DNA of 64,000 nucleotides from a virus: positions 17,921-81,920 of IMG/VR virus record IMGVR_UViG_3300031963_000072; one strand, written 5' to 3'. Under the pieces are notes generated by a model that was not told where the DNA came from, did not search any database, and saw nothing but the letters and a program-made list of their open reading frames with translations. Every line of letters starts with the position of its first letter. Positions within the stretch are counted from its first letter, which is position 1. Below are positions 19,206 through 20,834 of the stretch, piece after piece. The translations under genes and the position numbers were made by a program.

Positions 19206-19667
19206 TCACTCAATTTCCTTGTCGTAAGGCTCGTAGAGCATCTTACCTGCATCACTGCAACGATTGAGGTAATCCTCGAGCTGCTCGAAGGTAGTACACA
19301 CCTTGATGCCAGATCGACTGAGCATCAAGTTGAACTTAGCACCTTGCGGGAGATTCTCGCAGAAGTAGATGATCTTGCGATCTAGAGCGAATGCTGCGCC
19401 GGCCTCCCAGATCGTGCCAATGTCTCTGTACGTGGTGTTGACGAGGGTGAAGTCACACTCACGGATGTGCTTCATGTTGCCCTTAAACACGTTGTCCTGA
19501 ACCTCTAGAGAGGCGTCTGGTGGGCATACGAAGATCCGGCGAGGCGAGGCGAGCTCGATCCAGTCAGAACGACTGTCGAACACTGCCTCGAGCTTCGTGA
19601 GCTGCTTGTCTTGGTCTGGCGAAAACCAACCGCTTGCGAGGTAAACAGCTTGCTTACGATCAAACAT
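19206..19667 (-). CDS. nucleoside 2-deoxyribosyltransferase / nucleotide N-glycosidase family
   Basis: VYLASGWF, DIGTIWEAG, FNLML motifs. Confidence 0.85.
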   Translation of the reverse strand: MFDRKQAVYLASGWFSPDQDKQLTKLEAVFDSRSDWIELASPRRIFVCPPDASLEVQDNVFKGNMKHIRECDFTLVNTTYRDIGTIWEAGAAFALDRKIIYFCENLPQGAKFNLMLSRSGIKVCTTFEQLEDYLNRCSDAGKMLYEPYDKEIE

Positions 19668-19849
19668 TATTGACTCCTCTTCTTAAATTCGTTTCTGCGT
19701 GCTTCCATCTCTACCCAAACATCATCGTGCGTGAGGACGATGCTGAGACACTGTGTCACTGCATCTGTGATCTGATCGTTGATGCCCTTTGGCATGCTCA
19801 TGTTCTGCATAACGTGCGTAATGAGTTCGAGATCGTCCATCTTCTTCAT
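19667..19849 (-). CDS. small hypothetical protein
   Basis: Between ThyX-like and NDT genes; start moved to MKKMD. Confidence 0.55.
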   Translation of the reverse strand: MKKMDDLELITHVMQNMSMPKGINDQITDAVTQCLSIVLTHDDVWVEMEARRNEFKKRSQ

Positions 19850-19850
19850 G

Positions 19851-20834
19851 TTACTTGTTACCCTTCCAGGCATCGTGTTGTGCCTTAAGTCCATCCCAGT
19901 CTTTCATATCTGCGTTCCACAGTTCGGTGAACCTCTTCTGTGGACCATCTCCGTGCGTACCGTTGATTTCCTCCCTCGTGCACTGGTAGATCGTGTCGTT
20001 TGGGTGGAACTCAAACTTGTCGTTCTTCGGAATTGGCCAGTATAGGTTAGTGCCACGAGACACGAACTTGTCACCTTCCTTCACTCGGAAGGTCTTGATG
20101 TAGTGCATATCGGGCTTGTTGAAGTCAATCACCGAGGTAAATTCAGGAATTACCTTGGCAACTTCCACCGCCATTCTCGATGCCAGGAGGTTATCGGCAG
20201 CAGGCTGGATCTGTGTGTCCATGCGCTGGTAGATGAAACCGATGAGGTCCTTGAGGGAGAGGCGCATGTAGTAGAACGAGGTCATGCACTTCGGAAGAAC
20301 AAGACGTGCATCCATCATAGAGACTACCTTGGAGTCGACCATCTCAGCATACAGTTCCTTGGAGTCATTCACGATCTTCTCCCATCGGCGAAGGAAGTCA
20401 GGGGAATTCTGCACAGGCTCTGGGATCACGACGTCATCATCACGAAGGTCACGGTCACCAGTACACTGGGCGGCGAAGGTGCCGGCTCGGTGACGGATGA
20501 TATGGGTCACCTCCTGGAAGGACAGGCCACTGAGTCGGAAGGTGAATCCGAGGCATTCCATTGGGGCAGGAAGAGTGCGACCACCGAACACGTCCTCGAG
20601 GTTCTTGGATAGTTCTTGCTGAGACACACCTTCTGTCGGGTCGATGTCAGGACGGTCTGCCCACGTGGCCTTGACGTAGTGCCATGCCACGTTCCACGCC
20701 TGTTGGCGGGTCGGATGATCGACAAGTTCCACTTTGAGGGCGTCGAGGTTATTGAGGAAAGTGGTCTTCGGTTCTTGACCGAACTTGAGGACCATTGGGA
20801 GTTCGATTGGTTCTAGGTCTTTGTTGATGGGCAT
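19851..20834 (-). CDS. divergent flavin-dependent thymidylate synthase (ThyX)-like protein
   Basis: E...FTF.L.GLS....HIIRHRAGTFAAQC, DARLVLP; RHR-X7-C instead of RHR-X7-S. Confidence 0.8.
   Translation of the reverse strand: MPINKDLEPIELPMVLKFGQEPKTTFLNNLDALKVELVDHPTRQQAWNVAWHYVKATWADRPDIDPTEGVSQQELSKNLEDVFGGRTLPAPMECLGFTFRLSGLSFQEVTHIIRHRAGTFAAQCTGDRDLRDDDVVIPEPVQNSPDFLRRWEKIVNDSKELYAEMVDSKVVSMMDARLVLPKCMTSFYYMRLSLKDLIGFIYQRMDTQIQPAADNLLASRMAVEVAKVIPEFTSVIDFNKPDMHYIKTFRVKEGDKFVSRGTNLYWPIPKNDKFEFHPNDTIYQCTREEINGTHGDGPQKRFTELWNADMKDWDGLKAQHDAWKGNK

Follow-up and report, generated by a model that had tools for sequence, protein, structure and literature searches.

A divergent ThyX-fold protein with a rewritten active-site loop in a conserved phage nucleotide cassette: a candidate starting enzyme for pyrimidine modification

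All phage pyrimidine modifications with a known first step start from an enzyme of the ThyA fold (PMC8989533, PMC13326640). The thymidine hypermodifications begin with a ThyA-family hydroxymethylase acting on deoxyuridine monophosphate (dUMP; PMC8989533), and the 5-hydroxycytosine pathway with a ThyA homologue that uses flavin and O2, the 5-hydroxy-dCMP synthase (dCMP, deoxycytidine monophosphate; PMC13326640); the latter paper has no occurrence of ThyX, flavin reductase or deoxyribosyltransferase. For the flavin-dependent thymidylate synthases (ThyX, or FDTS), there are two nearer precedents: PolB is a ThyX paralogue found beside a housekeeping thyX and recruited to a different pathway (PMC5954106), and Bacillus phage SP-15, which has hypermodified thymine, encodes two Thy1 proteins, of which the divergent gp130 has been proposed, as a hypothesis only, to be a hydroxymethyluridylate synthase and the other a thymidylate synthase (PMC5977210). 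A ThyX-fold route to pyrimidine modification has never been shown. A literature search for ThyX paralogues of the kind described here, with most subscription journals outside its scope, gave nothing beyond PolB, the hypothesis on SP-15, and announcements of genomes, and no paper describing this branch or assigning it a product. The protein in question, hereafter ThyXL, is encoded in a phage sequence from the IMG/VR collection (IMGVR_UViG_3300031963_000072), and may be a ThyX-fold enzyme that has taken up such a role.

The DNA analysed (the window) is 64,000 nt long and comprises bases 17921-81920 of the 81,920-bp source record, which CheckV rates as 25% complete; the window is therefore a fragment of a large phage, one that is uncultured. 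The minus strand carries nearly all of its genes. Near-identical phage DNA recurs in freshwater metagenomes of 2017, 2019, and 2023, from several studies. The gene of interest is:

19851 to 20834, minus strand: ThyXL, 327 amino acids, Thy1 fold, with the loop RHR-x7-CTGDR, a Leu at the His53 position, and a C-terminal extension of about 90 amino acids

ThyXL has the ThyX fold. Its residues 49-231 match the Pfam Thy1 family (9.1e-18, 65.2 bits against a cut-off of 24.8), while it misses the equivalog score of TIGR02170, with 35.6 bits against a cut-off of 87.9; on this model the window's canonical ThyX reaches 100.9. A single-sequence phmmer search against PDB sequences gave no ThyX at E ≤ 0.01, and the relationship was found only by profile and fold search. 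The AlphaFold model of ThyXL, from a 98-row alignment (50%-identity cluster representatives together with a few close relatives), has a mean predicted local distance difference test score (pLDDT) of 95.5 and a predicted template modelling score (pTM) of 0.92, the C-terminal ~90 residues included. Its leading PDB matches in Foldseek are all of the ThyX family: first PolB (4p5b; E 4e-10, template modelling score 0.73 on the target), followed by the ThyX of M. tuberculosis and T. maritima (E ~1e-9; 0.64-0.76 on the target). A search of viral fold models gave unnamed “Thy1” and “ThyX-like” proteins, with the SP-15 “thymidylate synthetase” at rank 16; the ESM Atlas gave viral “FAD-dependent thymidylate synthase family” clusters only, and no structure.

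An earlier note on this DNA, made from the letters and their open reading frames, had described the gene as a second ThyX with a Cys for the motif Ser and a long aromatic C-terminal extension. Both descriptions hold. The Thy1 match stops at residue 231 of 327, the model is confident through the extension, and the aromatic residues Y265, F274, F/W276, F281, and Y283 within it recur in the 98 representatives. The motif RHRAGTFAAQCTGDR, present in the translation, matches RHRHFSYSQLSQRY of M. tuberculosis ThyX and KHRIGVSVNGESARY of the window's canonical ThyX in profile alignments, with Cys124 aligned on the Ser. Three alignments were combined into the full residue map: that of the window's canonical ThyX with T. 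maritima ThyX, in which the former aligns to S88, R90, and Y91 of the latter; that of the family profile with the canonical ThyX; and that of the family profile with M. tuberculosis ThyX. With T. maritima residues named by chain numbering minus 12, the equivalents and their conservation are:

Cys124, at Ser88: Cys in 68 of the 98 representatives (Ser in 12, Gly in 8, Thr in 6, Ala in 2)
Gly126, at Arg90: Gly in 69 of 98, Ala in 14 of 98
Asp127, at Tyr91: Asp in 70 of 98
Leu88, at His53: Leu in 88 of 98
Glu93, at Glu58: Glu in 90 of 98
Arg114, at Arg78: Arg in 98 of 98
His115, at His79 (the His of RHR): His in 38 of 98
Arg116, at Arg80: Arg in 93 of 98
Arg177, at Arg147: Arg in 95 of 98
Arg204, at Arg174: Arg in 96 of 98

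In ThyX, His53 is the histidine of the folate/nicotinamide cofactor (NADPH) site. Ser88 and Tyr91 of the T. maritima enzyme lie within hydrogen-bonding distance of the flavin carbinolamine hydroxyl, with Arg90 beside Tyr91; the dUMP-triggered consumption of the flavin carbinolamine is strongly slowed in S88A, R90A, and Y91A (more than 100-fold in the last), and R174 activates dUMP (PMC8316439). Read from the alignments, the ThyXL family retains the residues that in ThyX hold the flavin and the pyrimidine, among them the arginines that bind FAD and the nucleotide and activate the uracil ring (Arg114, Arg116, Arg177, and Arg204 in ThyXL), and also Glu93. It has replaced exactly those concerned with methylene transfer, together with the folate-site His.

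The family is a large one: 987 proteins match at E ≤ 1e-3, and at 50% identity there are 417 cluster representatives. Cellular hits amount to 31 loci among 185,579 species genomes; the best four of the 31 are contigs of metagenome-assembled genomes with a phage-like cassette, and the others are 22-31% identical. The part of the Thy1 family in which ThyXL falls is large and all but confined to phages. It has two major divisions, both with Q-C-[TS]-G-D: a window-like branch with RHR..SFSAQCTGDR and QRxDxQIQP, and a second with R-x-R-IGTFSQQC[TS]GD and KRxCTMTQ. Two metagenomic members have additional parts. In one (P0148, 551 amino acids) the ThyX-like domain is preceded by an N-terminal region that weakly matches GT2 glycosyltransferases (1.6e-4, below the cut-off); this region has no PDB sequence match, and the protein has no relative in the viral-contig scan. 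In the other (P0149) the ThyX-like domain is followed by an HNH homing-endonuclease part.

In the lineage of the window, the Cys is not a sporadic substitution. All 120 close cluster representatives (77-100% identical) have CTGDR after R-x-R-x7, as do all 68 distinct proteins (57-99% identical) from 80 IMG/VR loci, which makes 188 of 188. These loci are the closest relatives, found with a 10-sequence alignment; they are kin to each other, and counts among them are not independent events. Contigs from other samples that cover the ThyXL gene itself have 31 nucleotide changes at 30 places, 29 of which are third codon positions; 30 of the 31 changes are synonymous, and the exception, P66S, lies in the loop that the model predicts with least confidence. 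The gene is under purifying selection, and ThyXL is no decayed copy but a paralogue of the ThyX fold that is both distinct and conserved.

It coexists with the ordinary route to deoxythymidine triphosphate (dTTP), which the window encodes together with a ribonucleotide reductase:

33618 to 34864, minus strand: canonical ThyX of 219 amino acids (34205-34864) followed by thymidylate kinase (33618-34208)
42396 to 42824, minus strand: trimeric dUTPase (PF00692, 1.1e-38)

The ThyX at 34205, already taken to be canonical in the earlier note, matches Thy1 at 1.6e-35 and passes the equivalog cut-off with the score given above. Four long relatives (200-284 kb, one of them 100% complete by CheckV) all hold exactly one canonical ThyX (129-174 bits) and one ThyXL (66-70 bits), with no ThyA gene found in any of the four, and a complete 96-kb phage of another lineage has both ThyX types. 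As a complete ordinary dTTP route is retained, an exclusion of thymine from the DNA is argued against.

ThyXL is accompanied by a set of genes whose order in the closest 80 loci is: MazG-like gene, dUTPase-like/HAD fusion, ThyXL, nucleoside 2-deoxyribosyltransferase (NDT), a variable gap, DnaE, kinase/thymidylate synthase (TS)-like fusion, and epimerase or thymidine kinase. In the window these are, in the direction of transcription:

25295 to 25672, minus strand: small MazG/dimeric-dUTPase-like pyrophosphatase (dUTPase_2, 1.9e-5)
24360 to 25298, minus strand: fusion of a dUTPase/MazG-like part with a HAD 5'(3')-deoxyribonucleotidase, 312 amino acids, directly upstream of ThyXL in most relatives
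19206 to 19667, minus strand: NDT, 153 amino acids, with the catalytic Glu88 in D82-x-G-x-x-x-E88
15524 to 19138, minus strand: DnaE-type replicative polymerase (four Pfam domains: PHP, Pol III alpha, finger, HhH), downstream of the cassette
14616 to 15599, minus strand: YorR/Tmk-like P-loop kinase with a truncated TS/dCMP-hydroxymethylase-like domain, 327 amino acids, with invariant Cys258, RR, RS-x-D, and Asp289
12301 to 14607, minus strand: two NAD-dependent NDP-sugar epimerase/dehydratase genes (12301-13269 and 13612-14607), with a 105-amino-acid open reading frame (ORF) between them
11296 to 12355, minus strand: dCMP deaminase (11296-11739) and thymidine kinase (11726-12355), at the far end of the nucleotide block

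The NDT gene lies downstream of ThyXL in 77 of the 80 loci (within 100 nt in 60), and the three without it (L006, L036, and L037) end less than 1 kb past ThyXL. In 70 loci ThyXL has the HAD fusion upstream of it (62 of them within 350 nt), and 73 have a MazG-like gene; DnaE is seen in 41 and the kinase in 19, counts limited by the 7-kb flank taken for each locus. Among 47 more distant loci, retrieved with a second-branch alignment, the HAD-fusion family is found beside ThyXL in 36. In such distant phages NDT is nearby in 7 loci (L001, L088, L116-L118, L120, and L131), and the ThyXL-type genes sit in replication modules with a family A polymerase or DnaE. In L084-L087 and L123 the kinase and the TS-like domain are two separate genes directly after ThyXL, and in L121 the TS-like gene alone follows it. 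In Geobacillus phage GR1 (OK896991.1; L001), the sole cultured phage that has a close homologue of ThyXL (47% identity) and one for which a literature search found nothing, a “hypothetical” 151-amino-acid gene begins at the stop of ThyXL and matches the TS-like half of the fusion, and a P-loop gene upstream matches its kinase half. The whole GR1 block (22752-35645) runs NDT, thioredoxin, HD protein, a 459-amino-acid glycosyltransferase, P-loop kinase, RNase HI, and a nitroreductase-type flavoprotein directly before ThyXL, and then the TS-like gene, DnaE, dUTP diphosphatase, and a NUDIX protein. The steadiest partners of ThyXL across phage lineages are thus the dUTPase-like/HAD fusion and the kinase with its TS-like domain, not NDT. 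The two-gene operon with NDT proposed in the earlier note stands as a tight linkage in the window's lineage, and is only part of this larger cassette.

Two further observations concern the gaps in the cassette. The space between ThyXL and NDT is an insertion hot spot, with differing ORFs among the relatives, for example a Cys-rich protein of ~299 amino acids (L004:8136-9035, L007:8139-9038, and L009:8139-9035). The window and L006 only have a three-gene block between the HAD fusion and ThyXL (20892-24323, minus strand), encoding a calcineurin-like phosphoesterase, an RNA-ligase-like/cytidylyltransferase fusion, and a 404-amino-acid protein with no Pfam match.

The N-terminus of the 312-amino-acid fusion is all-alpha and dUTPase/MazG-like (C. 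jejuni-type dUTPase 1w2y, 1.2e-5, with weak matches to dCTP pyrophosphatases), and its C-terminus is a HAD 5'(3')-deoxyribonucleotidase (2jao, 3.9e-4). With the two activities joined, a deoxynucleoside triphosphate could be taken down to the nucleoside.

The protein at 14616-15599 has a kinase domain that is YorR-like (2axp, 4.1e-8; a weak match to dTMP kinase, TIGR00041, at 4.5e-5) and a C-terminal domain that, in the region of the catalytic Cys, aligns with the dCMP hydroxymethylase of T4 (1b49, E 0.0034). In 13 homologues, R-R, the Cys, R-S, a His, and an Asp 11 residues past the Arg of R-S-x-D are invariant; the position of this Asp is Asn177 in the dUMP-specific E. coli ThyA and an Asp in dCMP-specific enzymes (PMC13326640). 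The model (pLDDT 86.5) has its best match in the TS fold, to the dCMP hydroxylase 9iqu of phage HY126 (1.5e-5), with ordinary thymidylate synthases close behind. The domain was considered as a 5-hydroxy-dCMP synthase in its own right and rejected: the diagnostic D169N of these enzymes (PMC13326640) is absent, and the domain reads R-S-T-D.

A two-component version of the flavin-dependent 5-hydroxy-dCMP synthases can also be imagined, in which ThyXL holds or reduces the flavin for the TS-like domain, and the latter binds dCMP through its Cys and Asp for hydroxylation or another modification at C5. The TS-like gene does directly follow or overlap ThyXL in GR1, L121, L084-L087, and L123, the domain resembles dCMP-modifying enzymes in the alignment and fold matches just given, and the ThyA-fold 5-hydroxy-dCMP synthases work with O2 and a flavin that they bind loosely (PMC13326640). 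Such a partnership is nonetheless very improbable, since, besides the absence of D169N, the 9iqu match is barely better than those to ordinary ThyA, the two genes are 4.2 kb apart in the window, and ThyXL retains nucleotide-binding arginines of its own. A complex prediction for ThyXL and the TS-like domain, with an ipSAE of 0.00 in two runs without controls, counts neither way.

NDT, recognized in the earlier note as a neighbor of ThyXL, matches Pfam Nuc_deoxyrib_tr (PF05014) at 6.4e-13 (49.3 bits against a cut-off of 28.8) and PHROG 7995 at 9.9e-26. That note had left its role as a base-exchange or a base-removal enzyme. Exchange is favored: the NDT profile matches true transferases in the PDB (6evs, 3.8e-22; 7o62, 1.5e-13; 1s2d, 1.4e-12; 1f8x, 1.9e-7) far better than it matches the DNPH1/Rcl N-hydrolases (2.7e-3 for 4fyh to 0.09, with 9i3q at 0.051), and no MilB or BlsM entry is named among its matches at E ≤ 1. 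The 19 diverse sequences compared share Y9, D82, E88, N113, and the F-N-L-M segment without exception; these align with 6evs, and D82 and E88 are at least 90% conserved in 66 sequences. The alternative, a hydrolase that would strip nucleotides of a (modified) base in the manner of DNPH1, MilB, and BlsM, has in its favor that the fold includes 5-hydroxymethyl-dUMP N-hydrolase/DNPH1 entries, the weak matches above, and that the gene is linked to a candidate C5-modifying enzyme. It is improbable all the same, given the far better transferase matches and shared invariant residues; the nucleoside-making and nucleoside-using neighbors (HAD deoxyribonucleotidase and thymidine kinase) also fit a transferase.

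The explanation preferred here, tentatively and at slightly less than even weight, is that ThyXL is a neofunctionalised ThyX-fold flavoenzyme which starts a pre-replicative pyrimidine-modification cassette. It would stack a uracil-type deoxynucleotide on its flavin and carry out a different reaction at C5, such as hydroxymethylation or hydroxylation, instead of reductive methylation; for this component, a C5 reaction other than reductive methylation on such a nucleotide, the balance is about even. The reaction would be the committed step of the cassette. The MazG-like enzyme and the dUTPase-like/HAD fusion would clear or supply nucleotides, the kinase fused to the TS-like domain would phosphorylate the ThyXL product, and the adjacent DnaE polymerase would incorporate it, while NDT and thymidine kinase would recycle deoxyribose and bases at the nucleoside level. 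We infer the flavin binding, substrate, and product of ThyXL, and with them the modified base in the DNA, from the features described above. The parallel ordinary Dut-ThyX-Tmk route, the presence of a second set with pyrophosphatases, a nucleotidase, a kinase, and an NDT of its own, the loss of the methylene-transfer residues, and the purifying selection together make a distinct product likelier than a second thymidylate synthase. The changed substrate or chemistry suggested in the earlier note is in keeping with this distinct conserved paralogue beside a full dTTP route and with its rewritten loop; the emphasis of that note on the Cys was too narrow. More specifically, ThyXL might be the ThyX-fold counterpart of the ThyA-fold flavin hydroxylases, converting, independently of folate, dUMP, or else deoxythymidine monophosphate (dTMP) supplied by the canonical ThyX, through a reversed exocyclic-methylene intermediate, to a 5-hydroxy- or 5-hydroxymethyl-pyrimidine nucleotide; this is possible, and clearly less probable than the general form of the proposal.

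Several observations weigh against the proposal. Ser-to-Cys mutants of ThyX are reportedly still active. The Cys is moreover not constant in the family at large (68 of 98): on a FastTree phylogeny of 97 members, rooted with canonical ThyX and with the chimeric row P0180 left out, the label changes between Cys and non-Cys at least 12 times, with 7 changes forced by well-supported branches. S, T, A, G, or N takes its place with the remaining loop unchanged, and there is no universal new catalytic residue. The Cys is thus ancestral and common in the family, and has been repeatedly given up. It is therefore unlikely that the chemistry centers on a covalent Cys like that of ThyA, and the hallmark of the family is the rewriting of the whole loop, not the Cys alone; loss of the Arg90, Tyr91, and His53 equivalents probably matters at least as much. 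The conservation of Arg204, the equivalent of the dUMP-activating R174, favors a substrate of the uracil type, as in ThyX. Illumina reads of many metagenomes assemble easily into this phage's DNA and give no sign of modification, an observation that leaves simple modifications unconstrained. The trio of dUTPase-like, ThyX-like, and Tmk-like genes is also the order of the ordinary dTTP route. Finally, in two complete small phages (70 kb, 100%, and 48 kb, 99% by CheckV) and in the cultured GR1, the ThyXL type is the sole Thy1 gene, with no ThyA found in any of the three, as would be expected of an ordinary thymidylate synthase of phages.

ThyXL might instead be a very divergent but ordinary flavin-dependent thymidylate synthase, converting dUMP to dTMP with a compensated loop. 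The cassette would then be the ancestral dTTP route of these phages, and the canonical ThyX, Tmk, and Dut of the jumbo phages a second, acquired copy, used, for example, at another time in infection. The retained arginines of the FAD and nucleotide sites, the dUTPase-like N-terminus of the partner fusion, the weak dTMP kinase match of the partner kinase, and the dispensability of the Cys in many sublineages are all in line with this. On the other hand, the three residues whose mutation cripples methylene transfer (PMC8316439) are all replaced, the His53 position is nearly always Leu, and the ThyX equivalog cut-off is missed by a wide margin. Both types are kept in the window and in all four long relatives (57-99% identity), each beside its own kinase; the deoxyribonucleotidase of the partner fusion would destroy dUMP and dTMP; and the TS-like domain of the partner kinase has an Asp at the base-specifying position. 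An ordinary synthase is accordingly doubtful, and keeps the weight that it has because the cassette order fits a plain dTTP route and because ThyXL is the only Thy gene in several complete phages.

Around the ThyXL and NDT genes the window has these smaller features:

20868 to 20897, minus strand: sigma-70-like promoter match TTGTAA-18-TATAAT (10 of 12 positions), 35 nt before a GGAG ribosome-binding site and the ThyXL ATG
19667 to 19849, minus strand: small lineage-specific ORF packed between ThyXL and NDT, 60 amino acids from the ATG at 19849 (75 from 19894)
19160 to 19185, minus strand: intrinsic-terminator-like hairpin of 11 bp followed by UUUUAG, after the NDT gene

The terminator given in the earlier note is well founded: the hairpin has a dG of -19.9 kcal/mol and a z of -4.9, and none of 200 shuffles folds as well, although a consensus terminator scan missed it because its T run is short. 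The promoter of that note is present as a match, and there are 2 such sites in the window against 2.4 expected in shuffles, so that, with no enrichment, 20868-20897 is a plausible site. The small ORF that it placed in the unit is present and is reread here from the ATG at 19849, which is a better start than 19894: it falls two bases past the ThyXL stop, and the stop of the ORF overlaps the NDT start (TAATG). The ORF has no Pfam match and no homologue in the fetched related loci (tblastn, E ≤ 10, apart from one 17-residue chance hit). RNA-library contigs inside the ThyXL gene (one of 293 nt with 1 mismatch, and two short ones from a relative) are not evidence of its transcription, because DNA carry-over is possible. 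An ATAGTTA motif occurs in 8 copies against 3.9 expected, a number reached by 5 of 100 shuffles; no copy stands in front of ThyXL.

Elsewhere in the window, the replication region includes an actin-family protein with a strong Volactin match (40992-42068, minus strand; 9.7e-68), and there is, besides DnaE, a 402-amino-acid protein with a weak match to family A DNA polymerases (45942-47150, minus strand; 1.1e-8, barely above the cut-off). Two glycine-rich-domain proteins are encoded on the opposite strand (59961-62085, plus strand) in the sole G+C-rich stretch (0.59 at 60-62 kb). A pterin-4a-carbinolamine dehydratase, a carbon-nitrogen hydrolase, and an Fe/Mn superoxide-dismutase-like protein are encoded at 6057-7189 and 10322-11113, both on the minus strand. 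Clusters of GT1/GT2 glycosyltransferases occur in 3 of 5 records of the phage group (G001, G003, and G004); at ~100 kb from ThyXL, they are too unspecific a feature to be counted.

If ThyXL is a ThyX-fold enzyme with a different C5 reaction, it would represent a second, independent entry into DNA base modification. On the more specific reading as a flavin hydroxylase, an abundant group of freshwater and marine jumbo phages that encode DnaE, together with GR1, would have a non-canonical, possibly glycosylated, pyrimidine in their DNA; a new base would bear on restriction evasion and on the sequencing of phage DNA, and its enzymes could be mined. Were ThyXL a divergent thymidylate synthase after all, it would redefine the residues needed for ThyX chemistry. 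In either case, Geobacillus phage GR1 offers a culturable handle on the family.

Compared with the described ThyX/FDTS enzymes (PF02511, TIGR02170; T. maritima TM0449, 1o26 and 1kq4; M. tuberculosis, 2af6 and 3gwc), ThyXL shares the fold and the equivalents of R78, R80, E58, R147, and R174. It differs from them in having C-T-G-D-R for S88-x-R90-Y91, a Leu at His53, and the ~90-amino-acid extension; the His of RHR is kept in just 38 of the 98 ThyXL representatives, and ThyXL coexists with an orthodox ThyX. PolB, a C5-methylase of UMP and dUMP in polyoxin biosynthesis (4p5a and 4p5b), is its best structural match, at 18% identity, but is bacterial, belongs to an antibiotic gene cluster, and still methylates. 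SP-15 and the ThyXL phage both carry two Thy1-family genes; a tblastn search with ThyXL against the phage collection (E ≤ 1e-5) gave no SP-15 match. The NDT shares the catalytic Glu and the D-x-G-x-x-x-E and N-L-M segments with known nucleoside 2-deoxyribosyltransferases (6evs, 1s2d, and 1f8x), and differs in being phage-encoded and fixed next to a ThyX-like gene, and in having an invariant Asn64 (G-N) at the position of the “ND” Asp of 6evs.

The closest functional parallel is with the ThyA-based pre-replicative pathways (dCTPase, dCMP hydroxymethylase, and dNMP kinase in T4; 5-hydroxy-dCMP synthase and dNMP kinase in RB69 and DLP3; PMC13326640), in which the same logic of parts can be seen. 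In gene content only, the cassette shares with the T4, SPO1, and RB69 pathways a MazG/dCTPase-type pyrophosphatase, a candidate C5-modifying enzyme for mononucleotides, and a dedicated kinase, near a polymerase. It differs from them in that the candidate C5 enzyme has the ThyX fold, the ordinary dTTP route is kept, and NDT and a deoxyribonucleotidase have been added.

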